64,000 nt of DNA from Alphaproteobacteria bacterium (GTDB lineage: Bacteria; Pseudomonadota; Alphaproteobacteria; Bin65), in the NCBI GenBank assembly GCA_022819985.1, contig JAJEGH010000014.1, positions 8,086 through 72,085 on the forward strand, read 5' to 3'. Below are positions 27,146-47,255 of this stretch, in pieces. Below the pieces are notes generated by a model that saw only the letters and a list, made by a program, of their open reading frames with translations, ran no database searches and had not been told where the DNA came from. Numbering within the stretch: position 1 is the stretch's first letter; each line of letters opens with the position of its first letter. The translations under genes were made by a program, and so were the position numbers.

Positions 27146-29590
27146 ATGAAGGACCAGGCGCGCGTTGTCGTCATCGGCGGCGGAGTGGTCGGCGTTTCGA
27201 CCCTCTACCATTTGGCGAAAAAGGGCTGGACCGACGTCGTGCTGCTGGAACGGACCGAACTGACGGCGGGCTCGACCTGGCACGCCGCCGGCCTGCTGCC
27301 GCTGTTCAACATGAGCTATTCGGTCGGCCAGCTGCACCAATATTCGGTCAACCTCTACAAGACGCTGGAAGCCGAGACCGGCCAGGACGTCAGCTTCCAC
27401 GTCAACGGCAACCTGCGCCTCGCCACCAACCGCGACCGCATGGACGAATACCGCCTCTACCAGTGCACGGCGGAGACCATCGGCGTCGAATGCGAAATTA
27501 TCGATGTCGAGCGCATCAGGAAGCTGTGGCCGCTGATTAACGCCGAGGGCCTGGTCGGCGCGCTGTGGCACCCGACGGACGGCCATATCGCGCCGGTCGA
27601 CGTCACGATGGCGCTGGCCAGGGGCGCCCGCAACCGCGGCGCGGAGATCCACCAGCACACGACCGTCACGGGGATCGAGCGCGACAGCAGCGAATGGATC
27701 GTCAGGACCGACAAGGGCGACATCCGCTGCGAGCATGTCGTGAGCGCGACCGGCAACTATGCGCGCACCACCGCCCGGATGGTCGGCCTGGAAATCCCGG
27801 CGATCCCGGTGCAGCACCAGTATATCGTCACCGACGTCGATCCCGTCCTGAAGGAATACCGCGAGGCCGGCAATACGGAACTCGCCGTGCTCCGGGAATC
27901 CGACGCCTCCTATTATCTGCGCGAGGAGCGCATGGGCTGGATTCTCGGCCCCTACGAGCGCCACGCGCCGGCCTGCTTCGTCGACGGCGTGCCGGAGAGT
28001 TTCGAGAAGGACCTGTTCCCCGGCGAGCTGGACCGGCTCGTACCCCATGTCGAGGCCGCCATGAACCGGGTGCCGAGCTTCGAGAACGCCGGCATCAAGG
28101 ACATCGTCAACGGCCCGATCGCCTATACGCCCGACGGCAACCCGATGGTCGGCCCGGCCTTCGGCCTGGAGAATTTCTGGCTGTCGGAAGGCCACAGCTT
28201 CGGCATCACCGCGGCCGGCGGCGCCGGCTGGCAGCTCGCCGAATGGATCGTCGACGGCGAACCGACGGTCGACATGATCGGCGTCGATCCGCGACGCTTC
28301 GGCGTGGTCTCGAAGAATTTCGCGAAGATCAAGAACGAGGAGGCCTACGAGCACGTCTTCATCAACCACTATCCGATGGAGGAGCGCGGTCTCGGCCGGC
28401 CGGCCAAGGCGCCGCCCTGCTACGAGCGGCTGGACCGGGCCGGCGCCGTCTGGGGCGCGCGCTTCGGCTGGGAGCGGCCGAACTGGTTCGCGCCCGAAGG
28501 CGTCGAGCGCAAGGACGACTACTCCTACCGCCGTTCCAACTGGTTCCGGCATGTCGGCAACGAGGTCCGCACCATGCGCGAGCGGGTCGGGCTGATGGAG
28601 CTGTCGAGCTTCGCGAAATACCTGGTTGAGGGCCCGGGCGCGCGGGCCTGGCTCGACGGCATGGTGGCGAACAACGTGCCGCGCAAGGTCTCGCGCATGA
28701 CGCTCGCCCACGCGCTCAACCCCTCGGGCTCGGTGCGCAGCGAATTCACCATCCTGCGCCTGCCCGACGGCCTCTATGGCGAGCGCTTCTACCTGGTCGG
28801 CCCCGGCGCGGCCCACGACATGGACTGGGACATCCTCACCCGCCGGGCGCCGCGCGACGGCTCGGTCTTCCTGCAGGACCTGACGACGCAATACGGCGTG
28901 TTCGTGCTCGCCGGCCCGCAGGCCCGCAAGGTGCTGGAGAAGCTGGCCGACGCCGACGTTTCCAACGAGGCCTTCCCGTGGCTGACGGGCCGGGACATCC
29001 CGGTCGGCTACTGCCCGGACGTGCGGGCGCTGAGGGTCAATTTCGTCGGCTCCCTCGGCTGGGAGCTGCACCATCCCATCGAATACCAGATCCATCTCTA
29101 CGACGCGTTGATGGCGGCCGGCGCCGAGTTCGACATCGGTCCCGTCGGCATGCGCGCGATGGATTCGATGCGGCTGGAGAAGAGCTACCGCCTGTTCGGC
29201 ACCGACCTGAACGCCGAGAACAGCGTCCTGGAGGCCGGGCTGGACCGTTTCGTGCGCTTCGACAAGAACGCCGACTTCACCGGCCGCGCGGCGCTGCTCG
29301 CCCAGAAGGAACAGGGCGTGCCCAACGCCTACCGCACCATCGAGATCGACGCCGACGACGCCGACCCCTTCGGCAACGAGCCGGTCTATATCGACGGCGA
29401 GGTGGCCGGCCGGGGCACCGCCGGCGGCTACGGCCACCATGTCGGCAAGAGCCTGCTGCTCGGCTATGTGCGCAGCGACGCGGCGGAGATCGGCCGGGAG
29501 TGCGAAGTCCGGGTCCTCGACCAGCGCCGCCCGGCCCGGATTATCGCCGAAAGCCCCTACGATCCGGACAATGAGGCGCTGCGGGCGTAG
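27146..29590 (+). CDS. Dimethylglycine/sarcosine dehydrogenase-family enzyme (FAD oxidoreductase fused to a GcvT-type folate-binding aminomethyltransferase domain)
   Basis: 814 aa. N-terminal dinucleotide fold VVVIGGGVVGVSTLYHLAKKGW and STWHAAGL. The C-terminal half resembles GcvT (LMELSSFAKYLVEGPGA..., GSLGWELHHP, GYGHHVGKSLLLGYV). Confidence 0.88.
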   Translation: MKDQARVVVIGGGVVGVSTLYHLAKKGWTDVVLLERTELTAGSTWHAAGLLPLFNMSYSVGQLHQYSVNLYKTLEAETGQDVSFHVNGNLRLATNRDRMDEYRLYQCTAETIGVECEIIDVERIRKLWPLINAEGLVGALWHPTDGHIAPVDVTMALARGARNRGAEIHQHTTVTGIERDSSEWIVRTDKGDIRCEHVVSATGNYARTTARMVGLEIPAIPVQHQYIVTDVDPVLKEYREAGNTELAVLRESDASYYLREERMGWILGPYERHAPACFVDGVPESFEKDLFPGELDRLVPHVEAAMNRVPSFENAGIKDIVNGPIAYTPDGNPMVGPAFGLENFWLSEGHSFGITAAGGAGWQLAEWIVDGEPTVDMIGVDPRRFGVVSKNFAKIKNEEAYEHVFINHYPMEERGLGRPAKAPPCYERLDRAGAVWGARFGWERPNWFAPEGVERKDDYSYRRSNWFRHVGNEVRTMRERVGLMELSSFAKYLVEGPGARAWLDGMVANNVPRKVSRMTLAHALNPSGSVRSEFTILRLPDGLYGERFYLVGPGAAHDMDWDILTRRAPRDGSVFLQDLTTQYGVFVLAGPQARKVLEKLADADVSNEAFPWLTGRDIPVGYCPDVRALRVNFVGSLGWELHHPIEYQIHLYDALMAAGAEFDIGPVGMRAMDSMRLEKSYRLFGTDLNAENSVLEAGLDRFVRFDKNADFTGRAALLAQKEQGVPNAYRTIEIDADDADPFGNEPVYIDGEVAGRGTAGGYGHHVGKSLLLGYVRSDAAEIGRECEVRVLDQRRPARIIAESPYDPDNEALRA

Positions 29591-29912
29591 AGCGCCAATT
29601 CCATGTTTGCGGCTATCCTGCCCTGAAATCCCCTGGAGCGAACCTTTCGAATTATGGTTCTTCCGGCGGCCTCCGCGACAAATGAAAAAGATGGGGTTGT
29701 GAGCTGATTTGAAATTCCGGTCCGGGCAGAGCCCGATGTCGCCCCGGCGGGCCGCCGTTTTCCCCTCGTTGCCGCCCCGGCCGGAGCGGAGCGGAGAGCC
29801 GGGGCCCAGTGTCGCCGGCACGGCCTGCGCTTGTGGCTCTGGGCCCCGGATCGTCGCTGCGCTCCGTCCGGGGAAGCAATAATGGGAGGGGTGGCGATGA
29901 GGAAGCGGCAGT

Positions 29913-30695
29913 TCAGACTTTCGAGAAATCCGGACACCATTTCAGGATGCCGTCCCTGTAGCTCTGCCTGTCCCGAACGGCCGCCGCCCAGCGCGAGATG
30001 TTCGGGTAGTCCTCGAACGGATAGCCGCATCCAATGAGCACGAAGTGCAGGGGGATCCAGGAAATATCGGCCAGGGTGAACCGGTCGCCCATAATCCATT
30101 TCCGGTCCTCCAGCGTGTTTTCGAGCCTGGCGAAACACGTCTCCAGTATCCCGCGCGCCCTGGCGATATCCGCCTCGCCGAACGCGCTGTCGCCGGCATG
30201 CTTGGCGTGAAACTCTTTCAGCTCCTCGTTTTTCTGTAGTTCGTCGTACTTTTCCTGTTCCTCGGCGGTCTTCTTCAGCTTCGTCTGCATCCTGGTCGCG
30301 TAGACATACGGCTTGACGGCCGGCACATGGATGGACGCGGCAAGACGAAGCCACTCCAGCATCCCGTCTTCCCCGTCTTCCCCGTCTTCATGGCCTGTCG
30401 CGCGCAGCGAGGGTTCGGGGTAAGTCCGGTCGAGATAGTCGATGATGTCGTTGGACTCGATATGGACGACGCCGTTGTCGATCAGGGTCGGCACCAGACC
30501 GTTGGGATTGATGCCGAAATACGCATCCGAAACGTTCTCTTTCCGCTTCAGGTCGAGGTGATGGCTGGTCCACGGCAGACCCTTCTCGATCAGCGTCATG
30601 CGGACCCGCATCGAGCAGTTCGAGATATCGCCGTGGTAAAGGTGGATCCCCTCGAGCGTTTCCACGGACTTGTCGGCCGGGACGATCACCGCCAT
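29913..30695 (-). CDS. Glutathione S-transferase family protein
   Basis: The ATG at 30695 gives MAVIVPADK.... The N-terminal thioredoxin-like domain contains INPNGLVPTL..VHIESNDII, and there is a C-terminal helical domain. Contains an EDGEDGEDG insertion encoded by a 9-nt tandem repeat. Confidence 0.82.
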   Translation of the reverse strand: MAVIVPADKSVETLEGIHLYHGDISNCSMRVRMTLIEKGLPWTSHHLDLKRKENVSDAYFGINPNGLVPTLIDNGVVHIESNDIIDYLDRTYPEPSLRATGHEDGEDGEDGMLEWLRLAASIHVPAVKPYVYATRMQTKLKKTAEEQEKYDELQKNEELKEFHAKHAGDSAFGEADIARARGILETCFARLENTLEDRKWIMGDRFTLADISWIPLHFVLIGCGYPFEDYPNISRWAAAVRDRQSYRDGILKWCPDFSKV

Positions 30696-30804
30696 GGGAA
30701 GGCTCTCCGATGCTTTTGCGCGGCGGATCCCGAAGACGGCGCCCCGCACGGCCCCTGCAATCGCCGTTCAATCCGCTCGACCGAAAGGGACGCGATGAGG
30801 GAAG

Positions 30805-31380
30805 CTACTCGTTCTTGGTCATCAGATCCGCGACGTTGAGGTTCTTGCCGACCCGGTGGAACGGGCGGCCGGCATCGCTGACCGCCACGACGACGACGAT
30901 TTCGTCGCCCCGCGGAGCGTCCGTGACCGAAACCTGCATCGCGTCGAAATGGCTGAATGTCCACATTTCGTCCTTGTGATGCAGCGGGCAGTCGATCGCC
31001 GTGCCCGGCCCGCCGATCTTCTTGGTCGACGGCATGATCGACTTCGCCGGGCCGACGATCTCGCGCACCGGCTTGCCCATCGTGGGATGCATCACCGCCG
31101 CCGCGTGTTCGCGTTCTCCCTTCACACCGACGATCGCCGCCTTGCCGTAGCTCGTAACCGACGCCCCGTCGATGCCAAGCGCGTCGATCGCGCGCTGCAC
31201 CAGGAGAGCGCCGAGCGCGGCGCCGGCCTGCTGCAACTCCTCCAGTTCCTCGTCGTAGATCCCGGCATAGGGGTTCGCGATCACGGCGATCGCGGCGGCC
31301 TGGCGGGTCGCCGGCTCCACCGGCCGGTCGAGTTCGCGCCGGGTCTCCTCGACGACGGTGACGATCTTGCGGATCTTCAT
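30805..31380 (-). CDS. Amino acid synthesis family protein (DUF1185-like)
   Basis: 191 aa. MKIRKIVTVVEETRRE...AAIAVIANPYAGIYDEEL...YGKAAIVGVKGEREHAAA matches my recollection of this family. Assigned from memory only. Confidence 0.65.
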   Translation of the reverse strand: MKIRKIVTVVEETRRELDRPVEPATRQAAAIAVIANPYAGIYDEELEELQQAGAALGALLVQRAIDALGIDGASVTSYGKAAIVGVKGEREHAAAVMHPTMGKPVREIVGPAKSIMPSTKKIGGPGTAIDCPLHHKDEMWTFSHFDAMQVSVTDAPRGDEIVVVVAVSDAGRPFHRVGKNLNVADLMTKNE

Positions 31381-31505
31381 CCCGTTTTCTCCCGATCGTG
31401 GCAGGCATGACTCGTCCCGGGCACTATGCCATCGCCCAGGCCCGTTGCAACGCCTGCGTTAGGCAAATTCCGACCCCGTCGCTTTCGCAGCGCCAGGCAA
31501 AGGCC

Positions 31506-31976
31506 TCAATCCCCCGCAAAGGCGATCAACCGCCCGCAGACGAGCGCGCCCGACCAGCAGACCGTCGAGAGGATGGCGTGACCGGCCAGGCGGGCGCGCG
31601 GAGCGTCCTTGAGCAGGAACCCGTGAGCCCGGCACAGCGCGAGCGTGGACAGGACCCCGACCGCGATGAAGATCAGCTTGAGCTGGAGGAATCCGATATC
31701 GCTGTATTCCCGCGCCCGGACTGCGAACAGCAGCGGTCCCGTGAGCAGGGCAAGAACCAGCCCGGCGGCCGCGACCGGCGCGAGCACCCGCACCACCGCT
31801 TCGCGGGAGATGCCGCGCCACACGCCGAGAAGTCGCAGATTGAGCGGGACGACGGACCCGACCAGCAGGGCGATGGCGAAGATGTGCGCCGCGTTGACGC
31901 CGGCATAGAGCCAGCGGGAACTCCGCAGGGATTGCGCCAGGGTCGTCCCCTCGAGCGCTGCGAACAGGACCTCCAA
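31506..31976 (-). CDS. Hypothetical integral membrane protein (about 4 TM segments)
   Basis: 156 aa of hydrophobic segments. A 4-nt gap separates it from the upstream small secreted protein gene, suggesting an operon. Confidence 0.6.
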   Translation of the reverse strand: MEVLFAALEGTTLAQSLRSSRWLYAGVNAAHIFAIALLVGSVVPLNLRLLGVWRGISREAVVRVLAPVAAAGLVLALLTGPLLFAVRAREYSDIGFLQLKLIFIAVGVLSTLALCRAHGFLLKDAPRARLAGHAILSTVCWSGALVCGRLIAFAGD

Positions 31977-31980
31977 GATC

Positions 31981-32349
31981 TCAGTCGCGCCCGGGATAAA
32001 GGACGTATTCCCGTTTGCCGAGGAACAGCCGTTCCACCTTCACCCGTTTTTCCGACACATCGGCGGCCGGCTCGCCGATCACCCGGATTTCGACCCCTTC
32101 GGCCAGATCGCCGTCCCTGAGGCCGGCGCGTCGGTTGCGCCAGGGCTGGCCGACCTCGACCGTCCACTCCTCGCCCTCCACATCGACCTTCAGGACGCCG
32201 TGGGGATTGCCCAAGCGGACGGTCTTGATAATGCCGGTCAGATCGATATTGCCGCCGGTCGTCCACGACCAGCCGTGATGGGCCAGGACCCCGGCCGCCG
32301 GAGCCGCGAGCCCCAGGGCCAGGACCGCGATGAACAGGAACCTCGTCAT
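31981..32349 (-). CDS. Small secreted hypothetical protein
   Basis: The ATG at 32349 gives the signal peptide MTRFLFIAVLALGLAAPAAGVLA, followed by HHGWSW. The ORF opens at 32370. Confidence 0.6.
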   Translation of the reverse strand: MTRFLFIAVLALGLAAPAAGVLAHHGWSWTTGGNIDLTGIIKTVRLGNPHGVLKVDVEGEEWTVEVGQPWRNRRAGLRDGDLAEGVEIRVIGEPAADVSEKRVKVERLFLGKREYVLYPGRD

Positions 32350-32568
32350 GGTGCGCCTCCGATGCCTCAAGCGTTACCGGCAAGGTTGCGTCACACGGCC
32401 GGACATTCAAGCCGGCGCGTCCCGGATAACCTTCACGACCGTGGCGATCGTACCCGACCCGCCCGGGAACGGGGTGCCGCGAGATCCGGCATCGGCTATT
32501 GGACGGGGCCGGACATCTCGAACGGGGCGGTCCGGGTCAAGCCGCAGCTCGAAGGCGAACCGTTATCG

Positions 32569-33444
32569 ATGGAGCATTCTTCAATGACCGAATCCCGTCC
32601 CAGACTCACGATTCCGGATCTCGCCGCCAAAAAGGCGGCGGGCGAGCGCCTCGCGATGGTGGCGGTCGGCGAATGCCTGACCGCGGCTTGGGCGGAGCGG
32701 GCCGGAATCGATATCCTGGGCGTCGGAGACAGCCTCGGCATGACGCTCTATGGACACGAGAACACGCTGCCTATGACCGTCGACCAGATGATCGAGCACA
32801 CCAGGGCCGTCCGCCGCGGCGCGCCGAACACATTCTGCCTCGTTTCCATGCCCTACGGCTCCTACGCCACCGCCGACCTGGCGGTGACGAACGCCGTGCG
32901 GATGATGAAGGAAAGCGGCGCCGAGGCGGTGAAGCTGCAGGGCGGGCGCGAGATGTTCGACGTCATCAAGGCCGTCGCCGACGCCGGCGTGCCGGTCATG
33001 AGCCATGTCGGGCTGCTGCCGCACTATGTGCATCGGTTCGGCGGCTTCAAAATGCAGGGCCGCACCGTGGAGGACGCGCTGAAGATCGTCGACAACGCCC
33101 GGGCTATCGAAGAGGCCGGCGCCATCGGCCTGGAGATCGAGGCGATGCCCTACGAGGTCGGCAAGGCCGTCGACGACGCGGTGAGCATCTTCACTTTCTC
33201 CATCGGCGCCGGCTCCGCGGGCACTTGCCAGCTCCTCAACGGCTACGACCTGATCGGCGCCTTCGATACGTTCAAGCCGAAATTCGCCAAGCGCTACGGC
33301 AACATCGCCGAAATCGCGACCGAGGCCTTCGCCCGGTACGCCGGGGAGGTCCGGGCCGGAGCCTTCCCGGACGAGGACCACAGCTACAAGATGAAGCCCG
33401 AAGAGGCGGCCAGGTTCGCCGAAGCCCTGAAGGCGGGCATCTGA
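32569..33444 (+). CDS. panB: 3-methyl-2-oxobutanoate hydroxymethyltransferase (PanB family)
   Basis: MVAVGECLTAAWAERAGIDILGVGDSLGMTLYGHENTLPMTVDQMIEHTRAVRRG..., KLQGG, HVGLLPH. Start is 32569 or 32584; the upstream part of the track ORF is rejected. Confidence 0.86.
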   Translation: MEHSSMTESRPRLTIPDLAAKKAAGERLAMVAVGECLTAAWAERAGIDILGVGDSLGMTLYGHENTLPMTVDQMIEHTRAVRRGAPNTFCLVSMPYGSYATADLAVTNAVRMMKESGAEAVKLQGGREMFDVIKAVADAGVPVMSHVGLLPHYVHRFGGFKMQGRTVEDALKIVDNARAIEEAGAIGLEIEAMPYEVGKAVDDAVSIFTFSIGAGSAGTCQLLNGYDLIGAFDTFKPKFAKRYGNIAEIATEAFARYAGEVRAGAFPDEDHSYKMKPEEAARFAEALKAGI

Positions 33445-33544
33445 CGCGCCGGCCGAAAGTCCGATCGCTCATACGATACGGTGTCCGGGAAATGCATTAC
33501 GGGGCGCCCCACCGTATGTTGCGCGCCCGAGGAGGAACACTGCC

Positions 33545-34183
33545 ATGGACGACAAAGACAAACCCGGCCTCGACGCTTCCTACGGTTCGGGCTCGGCGGA
33601 AGAAAACCGCCGCGTCTATCGCGACTGGGCGGCGACCTACGACGAGGAATTCGCCGGGCACAGCGGATACCGGTTCGGCAGGCTGATCGCCGAGGCCTTT
33701 GTCGATGCGGGCGGAAGCGGTCCCGTCCTCGACGCCGGGTGCGGGACGGGCCTGGTCGCCGATCGCCTGCCGGCCTCCATCGTCGTCGATGGCGTCGATC
33801 TTTCGCCGGACATGCTTGCCGTCGCCGACGGCAAAGGACGGTACCGAACGCTCGTCGAGGCCGACCTGACGAAGCCCCTGCCGTTCGAAGACGGCGCGTA
33901 CAATGGCCTGACCTGCGCGGGCACGTTCACGCAGGGCCATGTCGGACCGGAGGCGCTGGCCGGGCTGCTGCGCGTGCTCCGGCCCGGCGCGGTCTGCGCG
34001 ATCAGCATCAAGCTGCCCTTTTACGACACCGCGGGATTTGCCAGGGAGTTCGAGGCGCTTGGTTCCGGGAAGGTCATATCCCGGCCGGCCGTCCGCGAGG
34101 AGCGCGTCTACAGCGCCGACTCGACGCCGCCGGCAGGTCACGAGAACGATCTCGCCTACATCGTCACGTTCCGGAAGACCTGA
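33545..34183 (+). CDS. Class I SAM-dependent methyltransferase
   Basis: 212 aa. Motif I VLDAGCGTGLV, followed by GVDLSPDML and the post-I/II pattern. Confidence 0.8.
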   Translation: MDDKDKPGLDASYGSGSAEENRRVYRDWAATYDEEFAGHSGYRFGRLIAEAFVDAGGSGPVLDAGCGTGLVADRLPASIVVDGVDLSPDMLAVADGKGRYRTLVEADLTKPLPFEDGAYNGLTCAGTFTQGHVGPEALAGLLRVLRPGAVCAISIKLPFYDTAGFAREFEALGSGKVISRPAVREERVYSADSTPPAGHENDLAYIVTFRKT

Positions 34184-34247
34184 CTTGCCGCGCAATTGCA
34201 GAACATGCATTTCCTGACATCGCTGCACTCGAAACGGAGGTCCGGCC

Positions 34248-35828
34248 ATGAGCGAAGAACGCGGCAGGAAGCCCGGAGAGCGGGCCGGACGGGCCGGGCG
34301 GCGGTCCGGCAGGGCCGGCGGCGGCCGGGAAAGCCGGCGCGCGGCGCGGACCGCCGGGCCGGTCGAGCAGCTGCGCGCGATCCGGCGCAAAATCCCCAGG
34401 GTCGAGCTGCTGTCGGCCGAGGGGCTGGAGCTTATCGAGCATAACGCCGACACGATCCTGGAAGAGGTCGGCATCGAGTTCCACGACGATCCGGAATGTC
34501 TGGAGATGTTCCGCGATGCCGGCGCGGACGTTGACGAAACGCGCGTCCGTTTTCCGCGCGGCCTCGCCCGGCAACTGTGCTCGACCGCGCCGGCGCAATA
34601 CACCCAGCACGCGCGCAACCCGGAACGCTCGGTGGAGATCGGCGGCGACCACACGGTGTTCGCGCCGGTCTACGGCCCGCCCTTCGTGCGCGACCTCGAC
34701 CGGGGCCGGCGCTACGGCACCATCGAGGATTTCCGCAACTTTGTGAAGCTCGCGTACCTGTCGCCCGCCCTGCACCATTCGGGCGGGACGGTGTGCGAGC
34801 CGGTCGACGTGCCGATCGCCAAGCGGCATCTCGACATGGTCTACGCGCATATGCGCCTTTCGGACAAACCCTTCATGGGCTCGGTCACCCATCCGGAGCG
34901 CGCCGCCGACACCGTCGCCATGGCGAAGATCCTGTTCGGCGACGACTTCGTCGACGAAAACTGCGTCTGCACCAGCCTGATCAACGCCAATTCGCCCATG
35001 GTGTTCGACGCCACCATGCTGGGCGCGCTCAAGACCTATGCCAAAGCCGGCCAGGCGACGGTGGTCAGCCCCTTCATCCTGGCCGGCGCCATGGCGCCCG
35101 TAACCGTCGCCGGCGTGATGGCCCAGACGCTGGCCGAGGCGATGGCCGGCATCGCCGTGACCCAGCTCTGCCGGCCGGGGACGCCGGTGGTGTTCGGCAG
35201 CTTCTCGAGCTCGATCTCCATGCAGTCCGGCGCGCCGACCTTCGGCACCCCGGAGCCGGCGCTCGCCCTGTTCGGCCTGGCGGCGCTGGCGCGCCGGCTC
35301 GGCCTGCCCTTCCGCAACGGCGGTTCGCTCTGCGCCTCGAAGCTGCCGGACGCCCAGGCAGCCTACGAAAGCGCGAACACGCTGATGCCGACGGTATTGG
35401 CCGGGGTGAATTTCGTGCTCCACGCCGCCGGCTGGCTCGAAGGCGGGCTGGCGTCGAGCTACGAGAAGCTGGTCATGGACGCCGACCAGCTCGCCCTGCA
35501 CCAGGTGATCGCCGGCGGCTACGACCTGTCGGAGAACGGCCAGGCGCTGAGCGCGGTGCGCGAGGTCGGCCCGGGCAGCCACTATCTCGGCTGCCAACAT
35601 ACCCAGGACAATTTCGAGACCGCCTTCTGGCGCTCGGCGGTCGCGGACAACAACAGCTTCGAGCAATGGCAGAGCGACGGTTCGAAGGACATCGTCGCGC
35701 GCGCCAACGAGCGCTGGAAGGCCATGCTGGCGAGCTACGAGGCGCCGCCGATCGACCCGGCGATCGACGAGGCGCTGATCGCGTTCATCGCGAAGAAAAA
35801 GGAGAGCCTGCCCGACGGGATCGGGTGA
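34248..35828 (+). CDS. MttB-superfamily (trimethylamine methyltransferase family) protein, non-pyrrolysine type
   Basis: 526 aa, uninterrupted (no in-frame TAG). Family-typical blocks: LSAEGLELIEHNADTILEEVGIEF, FAPVYGPPFV.D, NANSPMVFD, SPFILAGAMAPVT, GAPTFGTPE, KLVMDADQL, GPGSHYLG..HT. Arg-rich N-terminal extension. Confidence 0.9.
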   Translation: MSEERGRKPGERAGRAGRRSGRAGGGRESRRAARTAGPVEQLRAIRRKIPRVELLSAEGLELIEHNADTILEEVGIEFHDDPECLEMFRDAGADVDETRVRFPRGLARQLCSTAPAQYTQHARNPERSVEIGGDHTVFAPVYGPPFVRDLDRGRRYGTIEDFRNFVKLAYLSPALHHSGGTVCEPVDVPIAKRHLDMVYAHMRLSDKPFMGSVTHPERAADTVAMAKILFGDDFVDENCVCTSLINANSPMVFDATMLGALKTYAKAGQATVVSPFILAGAMAPVTVAGVMAQTLAEAMAGIAVTQLCRPGTPVVFGSFSSSISMQSGAPTFGTPEPALALFGLAALARRLGLPFRNGGSLCASKLPDAQAAYESANTLMPTVLAGVNFVLHAAGWLEGGLASSYEKLVMDADQLALHQVIAGGYDLSENGQALSAVREVGPGSHYLGCQHTQDNFETAFWRSAVADNNSFEQWQSDGSKDIVARANERWKAMLASYEAPPIDPAIDEALIAFIAKKKESLPDGIG

Positions 35829-36008
35829 GCGGCCTTCGGGACGGCACCGGCGCGCTCTTTTGGCGCCCTCCTCAGGATTGCTCTGCGGAAGGGAGCGCCG
35901 GCCGCAGGTTGGCATTCTTTTTTTGAACAATCATTCCAGTATATTTTCTCCGCAAACGCTGTTTTTTCCGCAGTTTTCCATCGTTTTTCCGCGGTCATAC
36001 CGAATTAG

Positions 36009-36022
36009 ACAGACCGGTCTGT
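36009..36022. promoter_or_regulatory. Perfect 14-bp palindrome ACAGACCGGTCTGT in an AT-rich patch with phased T-tracts
   Basis: Read directly from the sequence. Embedded in TTAGACAGACCGGTCTGTATTTTGATATTTTTTTGCA. T-tracts around 35962, 35974 and 35984 are spaced 10-12 nt apart. Confidence 0.4.
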
Positions 36023-36184
36023 ATTTTGATATTTTTTTGCACTTTGAAGCTCTCGAATCGCTCGAAGACCGCAGAAACGCTGGGAAGTCGCGATTCGGGG
36101 GGCCGCAAAAAAATTCCTGGCAGGAAATATTCCATATTCCGCTCCGAGCGATGGCCCGCGTCCCGAACCCGCCTCCCCCTTTAT

Positions 36185-36362
36185 CGTCATTTCGACCGGA
36201 GCCCCGGCCCCCGGCCGGGGCGGAGTGGAGAAATCTGGCCCGCGCTCCATCGACGCCGCAGGGCTGTGCCTGTGGCCGGCCTTCGTCGCCGGCCGGATTT
36301 CTCCGCTCGCTTCGCTCGGTCGAAATGACGGGTGGGCGGTGCGCTCCGGTCGGAATGACGGA
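36185..36362. repeat. REP/MITE-like inverted-repeat element (CGTCATTTCGACCGG ... CGGTCGAAATGACG) with an extra half-site
   Basis: The left arm at 36185-36240 (CGTCATTTCGACCGGAG...GGAGTGGAGAAATCTGGCC) pairs with the right arm at 36291-36330 (GGCCGGATTTCTCCGCTC...CGGTCGAAATGACG). A third copy, CGGTCGGAATGACG, lies at 36347-36360. Confidence 0.6.
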
Positions 36363-36617
36363 AGGGAGCGAGTCGCCAGCGGAGCGGACGCACTTCGGGT
36401 GCTGGCAAAAGCACATATAAGGAACATGATTCGCAATGTCAAGGACAATTATCGAAAAAAAGGAAATATTTTGAAGACTGCCCCGGCGAACCCCGGCGCA
36501 CCCGCCGCATGCAGGGTGCAGGGCGGCGGCCGAATCTCCCTTTTCGCAGAGAAATCGTGAGGAGCGGTTCCCCTCGGCTTCGCTCGGGGCGGGCTCCGCA
36601 CTCCGTCCCGAAGCCCC

Positions 36618-36650
36618 GTCTCGAAGGCGTCTCGAAGGCGTCTCGAAGGA
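36618..36650. repeat. 11-nt tandem repeat x3 (GTCTCGAAGGC) immediately 3' of the activase gene stop
   Basis: GTCTCGAAGGC GTCTCGAAGGC GTCTCGAAGGA. The last unit forms the hairpin GGCGTC-TCGAAG-GACGCC, a possible terminator for the minus-strand operon. Confidence 0.7.
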
Positions 36651-36654
36651 CGCC

Positions 36655-38706
36655 CTATCTGCGCCGTCGGCGCCCTCTCCGGCCCGAACTCTCCGCCGCG
36701 CCGCCGTCGTCCGCCAGCCGCGCCGGCAGGGTCACCTGCTCCGAGAGATGCGGATAGTCTGCGGTGGCGTGGGGCAGCGCCATCGCGTCGACGAAATGAC
36801 GCTGGAATTCGGGTTCGACCGCGGTCTCGACCTTTTCGATGCCGCGCACGACCCGCTCGATCTCGTCGCGCGCCGCCTGGTCGAGCAGGGCAATGCGCGC
36901 GCCGGTGCCGGCCGCGTTGCCCGCCGAAACCACCTTGTCGAGGGCGCAATCCGGAATCATGCCCAGGACCATGGCGTATTTCGGCTCGATATGGGTGCCG
37001 AAGGCGCCGGCCAGCACGATCCGGTCCGGCGCCGCAATGCCCTTGCGGTCCATCAGCAGGCGCGCGCCGGCATAAAGCGCCGCCTTGGCGAGCTGGATGG
37101 CGCGGACGTCGACCTGGTAGATGCGGATGTCGCGTGCGCCCGCCTTGAACAGACGATAGCTGAACGTCCTGTCCTCTGCCTGGAGCCGATCGGTCCTACC
37201 GCTCAGGGCGCCGTCGATCGTGCCGTCGGGTTTAATCAGGCCGGCGAGATACATTTCGGCCAGCGCTTCGATGATACCGGAGCCGCAGATGCCGGTGACC
37301 CCGGTATCGCCCGCCGCCTGCTCGAAGCCGGGTTCGTCGGACCATAATTCGCAGCCGATCACCTTGACCCGCGCCTCCAGGGTTTCGGAATCGATGCGCA
37401 CCCGCTCGATGGCGCCGGGCGCCGCGCGCTGGCCGCAGATTATCTGTGCTCCCTCGAACGCCGGGCCGGTCGGCGACGAAGCTGCGAGGATCCGTTCCCT
37501 GTTGCCGAGCACGATCTCGGCATTCGTTCCGACATCGACGATCAGCACGGTTTCGTCGGAGAGGTAGGGCGTTTCGGAGAGGATCACGCCGGCGGCGTCG
37601 GCGCCGACATGGCCGGCGATGCAGGGCAGGAAATAGACCCGCGCATCCGGATTGACCGCCAGCCCGATCTCGGACGCCCAGAGCGTCTGCGCCCGGTTGG
37701 TCGCGAGCGCAAAGGGTGCGCCGCCCAGCTCGACCGGGTCGATGCCGAGCAGCAGATGATGCATGATCGGGTTGCCGACGAAGGTCGCGTTGAGGATGTC
37801 CTCGGCCGAAATCCCGGCCTCGGCCGTGGCGTCGGCGACCAGCCGGTTGACCGCCTCGCGCACCGCTTCGGTCAACTCGGCATCGCCGCCCGGATTCATC
37901 ATGGCGTAGGAGACCCGGCTCATCAGGTCTTCGCCGAAGCGGATCTGCGGGTTCATGACTCCGACCGAGGCAACGACTTCTCCGGTCGAAAGGTCGGCCA
38001 GATGCGCGGCCACGGTCGTCGATCCGACATCGTAGGCAAGACCGTACGCCTTGTCGCGAAAACCCGGCCAGATCGCGATGATCCGCTCTCTCCGGTGAAT
38101 CGCGACGGTCGCCGTCCAGTCGCCGTCGCGCAGTATTTTCTGCAACCCCTGCAGGGTACGGATATCGCCCTCGAGATCGCCGAGGCCCCACTGGTCCCGC
38201 AGCGCCACGGCGAGCCGTTCGAAATCGCCGGTCGGGCGGTGCATGTCGGGCTTCTCGACCTCGACATAATGCAGCCGGACAGCCGGGTTGACGGTGATAT
38301 CGCGGACTTCGGCCCGTTTGCGGACCACCTGCTTGTGGACCTGGCTGTCCGGCGGCACGTCGATCACCAGATCGCCCTGCACCGTGGCGTGGCAACCCAG
38401 CCGCCGTTCCTCGGCCAGCCCACGCCGGTCCTTGTAGCGCTGCTCGTTGGCGCTGAAGGCGCTCAGATGGCTTGCTGCGCTTTCGAGCCCGAACTTGGCG
38501 AAGCGGCCGGTGCCGATCGTGATCTGGCAGCGGCCGCAGATGCCGCGGCCGCCGCACACCGAATCCAGATCGACGCCGAGGTCGCGCGCCGCCTGGAGGA
38601 GATTGGTGCCAACCGGAAAGGTGCCGCGCCTGCCCGACGGCGTAAAGACGATCTTCGCCTCCCGCCCGGCGGTCGTGTCCCCGGTGCCCGGCCGGCTCTC
38701 AGGCAC
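36655..38706 (-). CDS. Corrinoid reductive activase-like protein (N-terminal 2Fe-2S ferredoxin domain plus ASKHA ATPase domain; RACo/RamA-like)
   Basis: 683 aa. Plant-type ferredoxin cysteine pattern SVCGGRGICGRCQ...LGCH. ASKHA-like phosphate motifs (GLAYDVGSTTVAAHL, LIVDVGTNAEIVLG, GICGSGIIE). Overlaps the stop of the upstream methyltransferase gene by 8 nt. Confidence 0.85.
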   Translation of the reverse strand: MPESRPGTGDTTAGREAKIVFTPSGRRGTFPVGTNLLQAARDLGVDLDSVCGGRGICGRCQITIGTGRFAKFGLESAASHLSAFSANEQRYKDRRGLAEERRLGCHATVQGDLVIDVPPDSQVHKQVVRKRAEVRDITVNPAVRLHYVEVEKPDMHRPTGDFERLAVALRDQWGLGDLEGDIRTLQGLQKILRDGDWTATVAIHRRERIIAIWPGFRDKAYGLAYDVGSTTVAAHLADLSTGEVVASVGVMNPQIRFGEDLMSRVSYAMMNPGGDAELTEAVREAVNRLVADATAEAGISAEDILNATFVGNPIMHHLLLGIDPVELGGAPFALATNRAQTLWASEIGLAVNPDARVYFLPCIAGHVGADAAGVILSETPYLSDETVLIVDVGTNAEIVLGNRERILAASSPTGPAFEGAQIICGQRAAPGAIERVRIDSETLEARVKVIGCELWSDEPGFEQAAGDTGVTGICGSGIIEALAEMYLAGLIKPDGTIDGALSGRTDRLQAEDRTFSYRLFKAGARDIRIYQVDVRAIQLAKAALYAGARLLMDRKGIAAPDRIVLAGAFGTHIEPKYAMVLGMIPDCALDKVVSAGNAAGTGARIALLDQAARDEIERVVRGIEKVETAVEPEFQRHFVDAMALPHATADYPHLSEQVTLPARLADDGGAAESSGRRGRRRRR

Positions 38707-39607
38707 GGCGGCGGCGACGCCCTTCCCGACCGCGGCGGCTCTCGCTCTCGGCGGCGGGATCGCGAAACTTCTTCAGCCAGCGCCGGCAGTCGGGATCGTT
38801 GCCATTCATCACATCGGCCGCCATCACGGCATCGACTTCATGGGAATGCAAGGGATTCATGATTGCCGAGGTCATGCCCGAACAGGCCGCCATGCCGAGG
38901 AAGGCCGCATTGAGCCCGGGCCGGTTCGGCAGGCCGAAGCCGATATTGGACGCGCCGCAGGTACTGTTGACGCCCAGTTCGTCGCGCAACCGGTTCAGGA
39001 TGTGGAAGACCTGCCGGCCCGCCCGGTTGATGGCGCCGATCGGCATGACCAGCGGATCGACCACGATATCCTCCTTCGGGATGCCGTAGTCGGCCGCGCG
39101 GCGCACGATCTTCCGGGCGACCTCGAAGCGGACGTCGGGATCTTCGGAAATGCCGGACTCGTCGTTGGAAATGGCGACGACGGCGCAGCCGTATTTCTTC
39201 ACCAGCGGCAGGACCGCCTCCAGCCGTTCCTCCTCGCCGGTCACCGAATTGAGCAGCGGCTTGCCCCGGTAGACCGACAGCCCCGCCTCCAGCGCCGCGA
39301 CGATCGAGGAATCGATGGAAAGCGGCACGTCGACCAGCGACTGCACCAGCTCGATGCAATCGGCCAGGATCTTCGGCTCGTCGGCCAGCGGCACGCCGGC
39401 GTTGACATCGAGCATATGCGCGCCGGCCTCGACCTGGGCGACGGCGTCGGCCTCGACCCGACTGTAGTCGCCGGCGCGCAACTCTTCCATCAGGATCTTG
39501 CGCCCCGTGGGATTGATGCGTTCGCCGATGATGCAGAATGGCCGGTCGAAACCGATAACGACCTCCCGGGTCGCGGAACTGACGACGGTTCGGCTCATGT
39601 CGGGCAA
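38699..39607 (-). CDS. Methyltetrahydrofolate:corrinoid methyltransferase (pterin-binding, MtrH/AcsE/MetH-like domain)
   Basis: 302 aa. IIGERINPTGRK, MLDVNAG, PLSIDSS, LNSVTGEE and GASNISFGLP-like (CGASNIGFGLPNR) blocks typical of pterin-binding methyltransferases. Confidence 0.85.
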   Translation of the reverse strand: MPDMSRTVVSSATREVVIGFDRPFCIIGERINPTGRKILMEELRAGDYSRVEADAVAQVEAGAHMLDVNAGVPLADEPKILADCIELVQSLVDVPLSIDSSIVAALEAGLSVYRGKPLLNSVTGEEERLEAVLPLVKKYGCAVVAISNDESGISEDPDVRFEVARKIVRRAADYGIPKEDIVVDPLVMPIGAINRAGRQVFHILNRLRDELGVNSTCGASNIGFGLPNRPGLNAAFLGMAACSGMTSAIMNPLHSHEVDAVMAADVMNGNDPDCRRWLKKFRDPAAESESRRGREGRRRRRA

Positions 39608-39625
39608 ACTCTCCGGTCCGGATGT

Positions 39626-39934
39626 CTAGACGGTCGCTTCGTCGATGCCGTTCGACCGGACGATCCGCTCGACCCGGTCTTCGGGATAGTCCCGCTCGAT
39701 GCGGCCGGCGGCCTCAGCGGCCGCCGTTTCCAGATCGTCGCCGCAATCGACCGGCGCGCTGCGGCGCCACTGTTCGAGATAGTCGTCGGTGCCGTGCAGC
39801 TTTGCGCGGATGGCCGCCCGGTCGATCGCCTTCTCGAACCGCACGTCCAGCTGCCGGCGCGCCCTCTTCCGGCCGGCGGACACGATGATCTGGGCCGGTA
39901 TATCGCGCCAGTAGATGATCTGGAGCTTCGCCAT
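39626..39934 (-). CDS. Small conserved hypothetical protein (resembles proteins annotated as 'virulence factor family'); function unknown
   Basis: 102 aa, MAKLQIIYWRDIPAQIIV.... Sits 3 nt downstream of the DUF1638-like gene inside the corrinoid operon. The family name comes from memory only. Confidence 0.6.
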   Translation of the reverse strand: MAKLQIIYWRDIPAQIIVSAGRKRARRQLDVRFEKAIDRAAIRAKLHGTDDYLEQWRRSAPVDCGDDLETAAAEAAGRIERDYPEDRVERIVRSNGIDEATV

Positions 39935-39937
39935 GCT

Positions 39938-40696
39938 TCAGGCCCCGGGTTCCGGCTCGGAATCGGCCGCGCGGCGCAGGAATTGTTCCAGTTCGCCGTA
40001 GCCGACATAGCGGTAGGCATAGCCGAGGCCCAGCCGCGCCGCAGCCGCCTGCGCCTTGACCTGGAGCCCGGCATCGCGGGTCTGGGCGATATAGAGGCAG
40101 CGCGTGTAGTGGCGGAAATAGTCGTCGCGCAACTCGGGATGGCGGTCGAGGCCGAGGCCCTGGACGATCAGCCGGTCGAAATGCCGGACCATGTAGTCGG
40201 TCAGGTAGAACGTGCCGGTTTCCGCTTCCGCCAGGTCCGCGAAAGCCTGCCGGCCGGTGTAGAAGGCGTAGCAGTGCGGCCCGTCGATGCGCTCGGCGCC
40301 CTCTTCGTCCAGCACCCGGTCGAGCAGCCCGCCGGTCCCGCAGTCGGCGTAGGCCACCAGGACCCGGCCGTAAGCCTTGCGGTATTCTCGGATCTTCCCG
40401 CGCACCCGGTCGGGAATCAGGTGCGGCGCGTTATGGAGCCACGCCGGCACGCAGGCGACATCGAAGGCGGGGACGGCGTTCATGTTTCTGAAATGGACGA
40501 TTTCCCGGGCCAGGGCGCCGCAGGCGATCACCATGGTGCCGGCCCGGCTCCGCCCGGCAAGGACCGCCTCGCTGTCCGGTGCGATATCGGGCGCCGCATC
40601 GGGCGGGCCGGCAGCGACGGCCGGCCGCGTGGCGCTCCGGGGGCGTCCGCTCCTGCCGGTTCGTGCGGTCGGGCGACGCGCCAGCGCAGCCTCCAT
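39938..40696 (-). CDS. DUF1638-like protein; function unknown
   Basis: The core MVIACGALAREIV...AWLHNAPHLIP...VAYADCGTGGLLD...GPHCYAFY...FYLTDY matches my recollection of DUF1638. The ATG at 40696 lies 3 nt after the corrinoid gene stop; an alternative start is 40534. Confidence 0.7.
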   Translation of the reverse strand: MEAALARRPTARTGRSGRPRSATRPAVAAGPPDAAPDIAPDSEAVLAGRSRAGTMVIACGALAREIVHFRNMNAVPAFDVACVPAWLHNAPHLIPDRVRGKIREYRKAYGRVLVAYADCGTGGLLDRVLDEEGAERIDGPHCYAFYTGRQAFADLAEAETGTFYLTDYMVRHFDRLIVQGLGLDRHPELRDDYFRHYTRCLYIAQTRDAGLQVKAQAAAARLGLGYAYRYVGYGELEQFLRRAADSEPEPGA

Positions 40697-40699
40697 GAT

Positions 40700-41410
40700 T
40701 CAGTTGATCGTCGCGCCGCCAAGCAGGTTGTGCTTGCGCTTCATGAAGTCCTTGGCGATTTCAACCGCAACCGCGGCGTCCGGGCAATAGGCATCGGCGC
40801 CGACCGCCTGGGCGAATTCCTCGTTCAGCGGCGCACCGCCGACCAGAACGGTATAGTCCTCGCGGATGCCCTTTTCCTTCAGGGTTTCGATCACGACCTT
40901 CATATAGGGCATCGTCGTCGTGAGCAGCGCCGACATGCCGAGGATGTCGGGCTCGTGCTCCTCGATGGCGGCGAGATAGTTCTCGACCGGATTGTCGATC
41001 CCGATATCGACCACCTCGAAGCCGGCGCCCTCCATCATCATCGACACCAGATTCTTGCCAATATCGTGGATGTCGCCCTTGACGGTGCCGATCACCATCT
41101 TGCCGACCCGGGGCGCGCCGGTCTCGGCGAGCAGCGGCCGGAGGATCGCCATGCCGGCCTTCATCGCGTTCGCCGATTGCAGCACCTCCGGCACGAACAG
41201 GATGCCGTCGCGGAAATCGATCCCGACGATGCGCATGCCCTCGACCAGCGCTTCGGTCAGGATATTGTAGGGCTGCCATTTGCGTTCGAGCAGGATGTTG
41301 ACGCCCTCTTCGATCTCCTCGCGGAGACCGTCGTAGAGATCGTCGTGCATCTGTTCGACCAGCTCTTCGTCGTCCAGTTCGCTGAGAACGAGATCGTCGT
41401 CGTCGGACAT
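40700..41410 (-). CDS. Corrinoid (cobalamin-binding) protein, MtbC/MttC/MetH B12-domain type
   Basis: 236 aa from the ATG at 41410. B12-binding cap helix region, then the DxHxxG motif (KGDIHDIGKN), ...SALLTTT... and ...GGAPL.... First gene of the minus-strand operon. Confidence 0.9.
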   Translation of the reverse strand: MSDDDDLVLSELDDEELVEQMHDDLYDGLREEIEEGVNILLERKWQPYNILTEALVEGMRIVGIDFRDGILFVPEVLQSANAMKAGMAILRPLLAETGAPRVGKMVIGTVKGDIHDIGKNLVSMMMEGAGFEVVDIGIDNPVENYLAAIEEHEPDILGMSALLTTTMPYMKVVIETLKEKGIREDYTVLVGGAPLNEEFAQAVGADAYCPDAAVAVEIAKDFMKRKHNLLGGATIN

Positions 41411-42487: not shown

Positions 42488-42648
42488 CCCCTCGATACGC
42501 CCCGGCCTGGCGGCCGGGGCTACTCGGGATGAGGGGAATATGTTCGGGACACATCTGCACCCTCCTCCTTGCCTGCACCCTCATCCTTTCCTGCACCCTC
42601 ATCCCGAGTAGGCGCGCCAGCGCCGTATCGAGGGGGCCGTATCGAGGG
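42488..42648. repeat. Composite palindromic element between convergent genes, with an internal 18-nt tandem repeat
   Basis: The outer inverted repeat is CCCCTCGATACG (42488-42499) paired with CGTATCGAGGGG (42624-42635), plus a further CGTATCGAGGG copy at 42638-42648. The inner perfect 16-bp inverted repeat is CTACTCGGGATGAGGG (42520-42535) paired with CCCTCATCCCGAGTAG (42596-42611). There is a hairpin CCCCGGCC-TGGC-GGCCGGGG (42500-42519). CTGCACCCTC recurs at 42555, 42573 and 42591. Confidence 0.65.
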
Positions 42649-46137: not shown

Positions 46138-46866
46138 TTACGCCGCCCGTGGCGAGTCCGGCCCGACCTCCCCGGCGCGCCGGGCCTCGCGCAGCCAGAA
46201 ATACGCCGCCAGAAGGCCGAGCACGGCCCAGGCGACCAGGCCGACGCCGAGCGCCCTGGCGGCGAACAGGCTCGCCAGTTCCGGCGGCGCCGGGCCGATG
46301 AACTCGTCCGGATGCGGCGCGCCGATCAGGTGCGGCGCCAGGAGCAGCGCCGCGGCTACGGCCCGGAGCGCCCAGCCGCGGCCGAACGCGATCAACGCCA
46401 ACCCGGCGGCGGTCGCGCCGACCGTGCCGAACCACCAGATCTGGCGCAGATCGATTTCCGCCGCCGCCGAGCCCGGCAGTTCCGGCGGGGCGCCGAGCGC
46501 CGGGGCGAGCTGAAACGCCAGGAAGCCGGCCACGCCCCAGACCAGCCCCTGCCGGACCGTCACCCGCCAGCCGCGGTCTTCGGCCAGCGCCATCGCGGCA
46601 ACCAGCAGGAAGGCAAAGCCGGTGTAGGTCAGGGCCGTGAACAGCACGCTCAACCCGTCGCGCTCCAGATCGATGCCCGGGACGGCCGCCGTGGCGCCGG
46701 CCCCCCCATTGCCGGCCCCGCCGTCGCCGAAATGGTTCAGCGTCCCGCTCTCGTACAACTCGGCATGAAGCAGGACGGGCTGCACGAAGGCGAGTTGCAG
46801 CAGGGCCGCCACCACGCCCGCCAGAAAGCCGGCGAACAGCGCGCTGACCGCTATGCGGGAAAACAT
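46138..46866 (-). CDS. cbtA: Cobalt transporter subunit CbtA
   Basis: 242-aa polytopic protein (MFSRIAVSALFAGFLAGVVAALLQ...) directly downstream of cbtB and a B12 riboswitch. Confidence 0.8.
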   Translation of the reverse strand: MFSRIAVSALFAGFLAGVVAALLQLAFVQPVLLHAELYESGTLNHFGDGGAGNGGAGATAAVPGIDLERDGLSVLFTALTYTGFAFLLVAAMALAEDRGWRVTVRQGLVWGVAGFLAFQLAPALGAPPELPGSAAAEIDLRQIWWFGTVGATAAGLALIAFGRGWALRAVAAALLLAPHLIGAPHPDEFIGPAPPELASLFAARALGVGLVAWAVLGLLAAYFWLREARRAGEVGPDSPRAA

Positions 46867-47067: not shown

Positions 47068-47255
47068 ACACCCGACAACGATACTTCCCGGTTGCGTGGC
47101 AGGTTTCCTGGCTCACGGTTACCGGCCCTGGTGCGCTCGCCTTCCCGGCTTCTTGTCCAGTGGCGTTCGAGCGCGGCCAACCGTCTACAGTTGCGGGGAC
47201 AGCTCCGGACTCGATCGGCCGATCTCACCGGATTCCCTATTAAGCCCCTCCCCTT
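47068..47255 (-). promoter_or_regulatory. Cobalamin (B12) riboswitch controlling cbtBA
   Basis: The minus strand reads AATAGGGAATCCGGTGAGATCGG...CCGGAGCTGTCCCCGCAACTGTA...GCCACTGG...GCCGGGAAGGC...GCCAGGAAACCTGCC. This includes the conserved core and the B12-box (GCCACTG). It ends about 15 nt before the cbtB ATG. Confidence 0.9.

Follow-up and report, generated by a model that had tools for sequence, protein, structure and literature searches.

A probable MtgBCD-type glycine betaine demethylation locus in an uncultured Rhodospirillaceae-like alphaproteobacterium

Results

An MttB-family gene converges on a five-gene corrinoid operon

We analysed a 64-kb stretch of DNA from an alphaproteobacterial contig (JAJEGH010000014.1, positions 8,086 to 72,085 of the forward strand; hereafter the window), which carries the genes of a corrinoid-dependent methyl-transfer system. 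The gene set was defined by a map of open reading frames (ORFs) together with a screen of guanine-plus-cytosine (GC) content by codon position, and by Pfam and NCBIfam profile searches. A lone plus-strand gene for an MttB-family methyltransferase converges on five closely packed minus-strand genes (36655-41410) for a corrinoid protein, a DUF1638 protein, a small PF13769 protein, a pterin-binding methyltransferase and a reductive activase (Table 1).

An earlier reading of this stretch, made from the letters and their ORFs (the sequence-only reading), had proposed MttB, B12-binding, pterin-binding and ASKHA/2Fe-2S domains, and the Pfam and NCBIfam profiles placed every one of them; the DUF1638-like gene was likewise borne out by a PF07796 match. 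The 102-amino-acid (aa) product it had listed as unknown is indeed encoded, but does belong to a family, PF13769. The operon is tight, as had been stated, with intergenic distances of 3, 3 and 27 nucleotides (nt) and one 8-nt overlap. The range of 3-18 nt given earlier needs amending: gene callers on identical contigs start the methyltransferase gene at the ATG at 39598, giving 299 aa, and the 27-nt gap shrinks to 18 nt only with a TTG start.

Table 1. Genes and spacer of the locus, with the upstream demethylation-type gene (window coordinates)
Feature	Position	Strand	Evidence
DMGDH/SARDH-family gene (FAD oxidoreductase and folate-binding GcvT domains)	27146-29590	+	Pfam DAO, FAO_M, GCV_T, GCV_T_C
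MttB family, probable MtgB	34248-35828	+	PF06253, E 1e-235
Convergent spacer, mttB/activase	35829-36654	.	826 nt, non-coding
RACo/RamA-like reductive activase (2Fe-2S and ASKHA)	36655-38706	-	PF17650, PF17651, PF14574
MtgD-type pterin-binding methyl-tetrahydrofolate:corrinoid methyltransferase	38699-39598 (39607 with TTG start)	-	PF00809, PRK07535
102-aa PF13769 protein	39626-39934	-	PF13769 'Virulence_fact', E 1e-23
DUF1638 protein	39938-40696	-	PF07796
MtgC-type corrinoid protein	40700-41410	-	PF02607 (B12-binding cap) and PF02310 (B12-binding)

The MttB-family protein is non-pyrrolysine and related to MtgB

The plus-strand product matched PF06253 with 782.7 bits (cut-off 25) over profile positions 3-500 of 500, and fell short of TIGR02369, the model for pyrrolysine (Pyl)-type trimethylamine methyltransferases (273.2 bits, cut-off 525). 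A protein scan with one genome per species gave at least 586 stretches encoding MttB relatives among at least 600 listed, and synteny was counted by tblastn of the window proteins against the best 80 of these at least 586 loci. Pyl334 of Methanosarcina barkeri MttB (PDB 7XCL) aligns with Leu361 of the window protein, encoded by CTC (35328-35330, plus strand), and leucine occupies this position in 79 of 80 orthologues. Thus, the window MttB is strictly non-pyrrolysine, in agreement with the uninterrupted 526-aa ORF without an amber codon described before. The Rfam model PYLIS_3 matched inside mttB (35331-35427, plus strand) with 38.3 bits against a gathering score of 38, beginning directly after the CTC codon. 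We ruled this match out as a functional element: it lies in a non-Pyl gene in which leucine replaces UAG, and the model therefore responds to coding-sequence homology.

In a PDB search the protein was ~70% identical to a crystallised Sinorhizobium meliloti protein (4YYC; residues 15-524, E 3e-233) and 44% identical over its full length to the biochemically proven glycine betaine methyltransferase MtgB of Desulfitobacterium hafniense (2QNE/9YCE, E 2e-125). Its N-terminus is strongly basic, with 12 Lys/Arg in 40 residues (34248-34367), and an Arg/Gly-rich N-terminus is also present in 4YYC.

Carrier, methyltransferase and activase are separate proteins

The corrinoid protein carries the DxHxxG motif that had been noted (GDIHDIGKN, residues 112-120; DIHDIG at 41057-41074), together with SALLTT and VGGAP. 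Its best NCBIfam models are those of MtgC from anaerobes, both below cut-off (211 vs 370 and 185 vs 310). It is thus a separate protein of cap and B12-binding domains with DxHxxG, distinct from anaerobe MtgC, as in the system described by Mausz (2025). The pterin-binding methyltransferase exceeded the cut-off of PRK07535 (364.7 bits, cut-off 259), confirming the earlier assignment, and corresponds to the separate MtgD of that system; the AcsE (NF040758; 135.7 vs 370) and MetH models stayed below cut-off, and CdhD was also matched.

The activase has the 2Fe-2S and ASKHA composition ascribed to it, in the arrangement of RACo: an N-terminal 2Fe-2S motif (C51-x5-C57-x2-C60...C105) is followed by the linker, the middle domain and the C-terminal ASKHA domain. 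NCBIfam AcsV aligned to residues 18-649 with 394.6 bits against a cut-off of 800, and Rama_corrin_act reached 128 against 500; the protein is therefore a member of the RACo family and neither an AcsV nor a RamA equivalog. A RamA-like activase and a DUF1638 protein, two further proteins of the Mausz (2025) system, are both found within this one operon.

A quite different origin would be the methyl branch of the anaerobic acetyl-CoA pathway, with an AcsE-like methyltransferase, RACo/AcsV and a corrinoid iron-sulfur protein (CoFeSP). This reading draws on AcsV being the activase's best NCBIfam model and on the match of the pterin-binding protein to the carbon monoxide dehydrogenase (CODH)/acetyl-CoA synthase (ACS) methyltransferase model and CdhD. 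The AcsV match and that to the CODH/ACS methyltransferase model lie far below their cut-offs, no CODH, ACS or CoFeSP gene was found among the scanned ORFs of the window, and the corrinoid carrier is a DxHxxG protein of the MetH/MtgC type. We consider the anaerobic reading effectively refuted by the sub-threshold scores and the lack of CODH/ACS genes in the scanned ORFs, and extremely improbable.

The termini of several products differ in charge. The first 36 residues of MtgC hold 17 Asp/Glu (41303-41410), while the DUF1638 N-terminus, with 7 Arg in 30 residues (40607-40696), and the RACo C-terminus, where 7 of the last 20 residues are Arg (36658-36717), are strongly basic, as is the MttB N-terminus. 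Judged by composition, such opposite tail charges might let interchangeable partners dock electrostatically on the corrinoid protein.

The gene neighbourhood is conserved and its core has a second use

Identical proteins are encoded on contigs of three metagenome-assembled genomes (MAGs; GCA_022823445.1, GCA_022827465.1 and GCA_022823745.1), as well as in the corresponding ENA and Logan assemblies, and NCBI labels the identical-protein cluster 'Rhodospirillaceae bacterium'. Among the matches listed, the closest relative is a Rhodospirillaceae MAG (L001), with 95% amino-acid identity in MttB; the next, at ~74%, are Inquilinus, Virgifigura, Kiloniellales, Hyphomicrobiales and some Gammaproteobacteria. 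L001 and the window share 88-92% nucleotide identity over their common genes and differ by two insertions in the window (29591-34198 and 35856-36636).

In 34 of the 80 loci, genes for MtgC and MtgD lie no more than 10 kb from the MttB orthologue, in convergent, divergent or co-directional arrangement. These loci come from Alpha- and Gammaproteobacteria and from single MAGs labelled Limnocylindrales and Polyangiaceae, the last with MtgC only. Pfam scans of three loci (L041, 11423-17811; L045, 11585-17820; L046, 378-9628) gave the operon order MtgC-DUF1638-PF13769-(MetV-MetF)-MtgD-RACo. An acetogen-type MetV/MetF pair stands between PF13769 and mtgD in 20 of the 34 loci, GbdR-like AraC/DJ-1 regulators lie within 10 kb in 11, and the short operon without metVF is found in the window, in L001 and in about eight other loci. 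An adjacency that recurs in three orientations is hard to explain other than by functional coupling of MttB and the operon. The earlier proposal that the four-component set transfers methyl groups to tetrahydrofolate is supported by the domains present and by this synteny, kept in ~34/80 loci.

Published work describes such a system in aerobic bacteria. In Ruegeria pomeroyi, mtgC and mtgD are required for both growth on glycine betaine and methionine prototrophy (Mausz 2025 PNAS, PMC12478193). PF06253 proteins (MtgB), RamA and DUF1638 are induced on glycine betaine, and co-location of the genes, often beside those for the later demethylation steps, is seen in S. meliloti as well as in many marine Alpha-, Gamma- and Deltaproteobacteria (PMC12478193). 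In Phaeobacter inhibens, deletions of mtgB1 and mtgC confirmed their roles, and an mtgB1 gbcAB double mutant did not grow on glycine betaine (Hammer et al. 2025, bioRxiv 10.64898/2025.12.19.695462). The same organism has a split B12-dependent methionine synthase of separate pterin-binding, B12-binding and homocysteine-binding proteins (Price et al. 2018, PMC5764234), which needs RamA-like ferredoxin/DUF4445 and DUF1638 proteins that are cofit with the synthase (PMC5764234).

It could be argued that the minus-strand operon is essentially the core of a split methionine synthase whose MtgE is encoded at a distance, and that its adjacency to mttB is functionally meaningless here. The MtgC/MtgD/activase/DUF1638 core is indispensable for making methionine in P. 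inhibens and R. pomeroyi, and mttB and the operon are separate convergent transcription units parted by a 0.8-kb insertion. Against this stand the ~34 of 80 loci, from several classes and in three orientations, in which MttB and the operon adjoin, and a published model in which both functions use the core, so that the methionine reading is viable only in its exclusive form. In that form we regard it as very unlikely. The sequence-only reading had taken the two units as one system and independent function of the two as evidence to the contrary. The characterised systems bear on that condition: their corrinoid core also works without MttB, in methionine synthesis, and the two units therefore do not form a single dedicated pathway.

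Glycine betaine is the most likely substrate

The DMGDH/SARDH-family gene (dimethylglycine/sarcosine dehydrogenase; 'DMGDH-like' below) matched no NCBIfam equivalog. In L001 it immediately precedes mttB, with 96 nt (L001 9765-9860) between the two, and homologues with 55-77% identity adjoin the MttB orthologue in ~12 other loci. Co-location with genes for later glycine betaine demethylation, as in the published system, is thus seen both in the window, which holds the gene, and in L001, where it abuts mttB; the DMGDH-like enzyme is likely to catalyse the next demethylation step.

Mutagenesis and a ligand-bound structure have identified Y97, R312, H348 and F356 as the glycine betaine contacts of D. 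hafniense MtgB (Picking et al. 2026, PMC13080624). Y142, R356 and H392 of the window MttB correspond to Y97, R312 and H348 and are kept in 80 of 80 orthologues. The sequence-only reading had left the substrate unnamed; orthology, active-site residues and the DMGDH-like neighbour now indicate glycine betaine.

The same machinery might serve another substrate, namely proline betaine, carnitine, gamma-butyrobetaine, choline or an unknown compound. Divergence within the MttB superfamily has led to several quaternary amines as substrates; what varies among its members is the pair of aromatic residues binding the trimethylammonium group (PMC13080624), and F356 of that pair is not kept here. Aerobic bacteria also have several uncharacterised MttB paralogues. 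These points are countered by the retained Y142, R356 and H392, by the 44% full-length identity to proven MtgB, and by the company of this MttB clade, which is found beside mtgC, DMGDH-like genes and GbdR-like regulators and so fits conversion of glycine betaine to dimethylglycine. We judge a different substrate rather unlikely. Given the assignment to the system, glycine betaine is the most likely MttB substrate, and probably the actual one, on the basis of orthology, active-site residues and the DMGDH and GbdR-like neighbours.

Several observations weigh against reading the locus as a glycine betaine system of the aerobic type. The position of F356 is Gly400 in the window MttB and is invariant in 80 orthologues; an equally invariant Trp396 lies four residues upstream (80 orthologues), and our guess is that it stands in for F356. 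The DMGDH-like gene is parted from mttB by the 4.6-kb insertion 29591-34198, which L001 lacks. Neither metVF nor a gbdR-like gene was found by tblastn in the 64-kb window, nor was mtgE (a homocysteine S-methyltransferase domain) among its Pfam-scanned ORFs; any dual role and the downstream oxidation of methyl-tetrahydrofolate therefore depend on genes elsewhere. The cited literature reports no enzyme activity for any proteobacterial MttB orthologue, and characterised aerobic organisms hold up to seven MttB paralogues with substrates not assigned (PMC12478193). The earlier statement that the locus encodes no regulator also holds: none was found within ~10 kb, and one GbdR-like query had no match across the window.

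The 4.6-kb insertion contains genes for a glutathione S-transferase (GST), a PF06684 'AA_synth' protein, a 156-aa unknown protein, DUF6152, panB and a 212-aa S-adenosylmethionine (SAM)-methyltransferase (33545-34183), the last being the gene just upstream of mttB. An ORF at 33481-34251, which overlaps the mttB start, was rejected as a gene; it had no Pfam or NCBIfam match, and the out-of-frame SAM-methyltransferase ORF is the real gene. Only ~49 nt upstream of the mttB start are common with L001, and the native promoter region is therefore displaced.

PF13769 and DUF1638 form a strict pair

The PF13769 and DUF1638 genes co-occur perfectly and in fixed adjacency, both being present in 29 of the 34 comparable loci and both missing from the other 5. 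AlphaFold models were confident, with a predicted local distance difference test (pLDDT) score of 93.8 for the PF13769 protein and 84.4 for DUF1638 outside its disordered Arg-rich N-terminus. Foldseek comparison of the models with the PDB gave no match at E<=0.001, with template modelling (TM) scores below ~0.35, and PDB sequence searches with both proteins gave no match. In the orthologue alignment, DUF1638 has invariant Cys59, Cys119, Cys142, His88 and His141 and a nearly invariant Cys82, a set whose conservation suggests a putative metal or cofactor site. In the PF13769 protein, one Cys is invariant and a WRDIPAQ motif is conserved.

The fitness phenotype of DUF1638 in P. inhibens links it to B12-dependent methyl transfer (PMC5764234). 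A literature search found no paper containing 'PF13769', and the cited descriptions of the aerobic system do not mention it. Co-occurrence, fixed adjacency, confident folds without a solved relative and the published DUF1638 mutant phenotype lead us to offer, tentatively, the possibility that PF13769 and DUF1638 make up an obligate accessory module of two proteins, so far overlooked, in aerobic corrinoid methyltransferase systems. Such a module might load or protect cobalamin on MtgC, or might pass electrons to RACo, with the Cys/His residues of DUF1638 perhaps binding a metal or cluster. If true, this would help to account for how a Co(I) cycle that is sensitive to oxygen runs in air.

The spacer between the convergent genes is a lineage-specific insertion

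The sequence-only reading had singled out an unusual non-coding spacer of 830 nt between the two units. The spacer is non-coding (826 nt), with no Rfam match at E<=1 and no credible ORF of >=25 aa, but it is not a feature of the system: window positions 35856-36636 have no counterpart in the nearest relative, L001, where 58 bases stay unmatched. A riboswitch or small RNA was ruled out by the absent Rfam match. Its GC content is 0.60 against ~0.67 for the genome, with AT-rich blocks at the ends (0.47 and 0.35) and a GC-rich middle. Three sigma-70-like matches fall in the AT-rich blocks; we took them as compositional and rejected them as promoters.

An insertion of ~697 nt (35868-36564) is flanked by imperfect 38-nt inverted repeats (35868-35905 and 36526-36564) whose arms agree at 32 of 39 positions (score 41, shuffle maximum 28). 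Within it lie a 14-nt perfect palindrome, ACAGACCGGTCTGT (36009-36022), overlapping a promoter-like site, a long nested GC-rich hairpin in the predicted fold (36170-36375) and a 30-nt tandem repeat. The latter has 2 copies in the window and 4 in a contig of the same species from a different sample (L087, 7553-8504). An 11-nt tandem repeat downstream of the insertion, just before the activase stop codon (~36617-36650), has 3 copies against 4 in L087; the contigs are otherwise identical.

The inverted-repeat pattern occurred nowhere else in the window and in none of the other 86 loci. A metagenome scan for the insertion gave 15 matches, each extending only 21-27 nt; being short and in unrelated low-GC contigs, they are chance matches. 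With no other copy in the window, the 86 loci or metagenomes, a multi-copy mobile element was rejected. Of the marks of miniature inverted-repeat transposable elements (MITEs), namely terminal inverted repeats, a target-site duplication and multiple copies, the insertion shows imperfect terminal inverted repeats, and neither a target-site duplication nor a second copy was seen; it is absent from L001. We read it as a lineage-specific, repeat-rich intergenic insertion between two convergent genes, not part of the system, and possibly a decayed MITE-like element.

Other features of the window

The window is core chromosome, with gltX, gltA, lpxI/lpxA, bamA, rseP, cdsA, rpsB and others. A cobalamin riboswitch (RF00174, 101.5 bits; 47081-47288, minus strand) lies upstream of a gene for the cobalt transporter CbtA (46138-46866, minus strand; PF09490, TIGR02458 above cut-off); the corrinoid operon is ~5 kb away. 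Cobalt uptake under B12 control, next to a system that depends on B12, agrees with the reported link between glycine betaine and cobalt in P. inhibens. An Rfam match to the rpsB leader/small RNA (21877-21999, minus strand; 40.5 bits, gathering score 40) upstream of the ribosomal protein S2 gene (20769-21911) is as expected for a housekeeping region, and three successive ORFs match DUF3859 (PF12975; 51016-52610, minus strand), so that an uncharacterised gene is apparently triplicated in tandem.

Short GC-rich hairpins resembling repetitive extragenic palindromes are common to the window (29796-29872 and 42595-42634) and L001 (420-497 and 11497-11536), but the convergent intergenic sites that they occupy differ. 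Small palindromic repeats thus seem to move between gene ends in this lineage. The window hairpin at 29796-29872 and the spacer hairpin are different elements.

Discussion

We conclude that the locus is very probably an orthologue of the MtgBCD system known from aerobic Proteobacteria and would pass a methyl group from glycine betaine to folate. From the domain identities, motifs, orthology and synteny observed here we infer a substrate, a direction of methyl flow, a dual role and accessory roles as follows. MttB/MtgB would bind glycine betaine, methylate the Co(I) corrinoid of MtgC and free dimethylglycine, and MtgD would move the methyl group from methyl-Co(III) to tetrahydrofolate. When the corrinoid is accidentally oxidised to Co(II), as is expected often in air, the RACo/RamA-like protein would re-reduce it with its 2Fe-2S cluster and ATP. 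DUF1638, and probably also its constant partner PF13769, would aid reactivation or cofactor handling, and the DMGDH-like enzyme, encoded 4.6 kb upstream, would process dimethylglycine further. Judging from R. pomeroyi and P. inhibens, the MtgC/MtgD/activase core would probably also yield methionine by running in reverse, together with a homocysteine-binding MtgE that is encoded separately. The mechanism put forward in the sequence-only reading was thus largely right, and it missed the probable specificity for glycine betaine and the shared use of the core in methionine synthesis.

Since the aerobic system was published between 2018 and 2025, including the frequent co-location of its genes, the locus is an ordinary new copy, and as a system it adds little to what has been published on the demethylation of glycine betaine with cobalamin and its coupling to a split methionine synthase. 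It extends the known distribution to an uncultured Rhodospirillaceae-like lineage, and its operon is a compact short form with five genes. The comparative set gives a conserved operon grammar and the PF13769-DUF1638 pairing. The strictness of that pairing nominates PF13769 as a candidate sixth component. This co-occurrence is the one observation that we did not meet in the cited accounts of the system, and it is a lead, not a result.

Among known systems, the closest is the aerobic MtgBCD(E)/RamA/DUF1638 system of R. pomeroyi DSS-3, P. inhibens and S. meliloti. Its PF06253 methyltransferase, corrinoid protein, pterin methyltransferase, 2Fe-2S/ASKHA activase and DUF1638 are all in the window, and the association with a dimethylglycine-demethylation gene and the aerobic alphaproteobacterial type of host agree as well. 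In contrast to the described system, mtgE, metF2 and a regulator were not found in the window, PF13769 belongs to the operon as a constant member, and the host is an uncultured Rhodospirillaceae-like MAG lineage. The core is a five-gene operon without metVF, unlike most comparable loci, 20 of 34 of which have metV-metF. The S. meliloti protein 4YYC, a structural-genomics entry named 'putative trimethylamine methyltransferase' whose activity is not reported in the cited literature, shares the ~70% identity, the Arg/Gly-rich N-terminal extension and the active-site segment AAGWLEGGL.

With D. hafniense MtgB/MtgC/MtgA the locus shares the three-component logic, the residues equivalent to Y97, R312 and H348, and leucine in place of pyrrolysine. 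It departs from that system in not keeping F356 and in a corrinoid protein below the cut-offs for anaerobe MtgC, and hosts of the D. hafniense type are strict anaerobes. MtgA is described in PMC7154762 as having no sequence identity to known structures, whereas the window methyltransferase belongs to the pterin-binding family and is MetH/AcsE-like. The M. barkeri MttB/MttC/RamA system resembles ours in superfamily fold, with the C-terminal half aligning to 7XCL (E 4e-39), and in the three-component scheme with an ATP-dependent activase; it differs in that the window has no pyrrolysine (CTC for UAG at Leu361), a tetrahydrofolate rather than a coenzyme M acceptor, and an activase of the 2Fe-2S RACo type. 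Finally, MetH has homologous pterin-binding and cap/B12 modules (TIGR02082 partial matches, E 7e-40 and 8e-50). In the window these modules are separate proteins, the homocysteine-binding and S-adenosylmethionine (AdoMet) reactivation domains of MetH are lacking, and reactivation is instead the task of the RACo-type activase.

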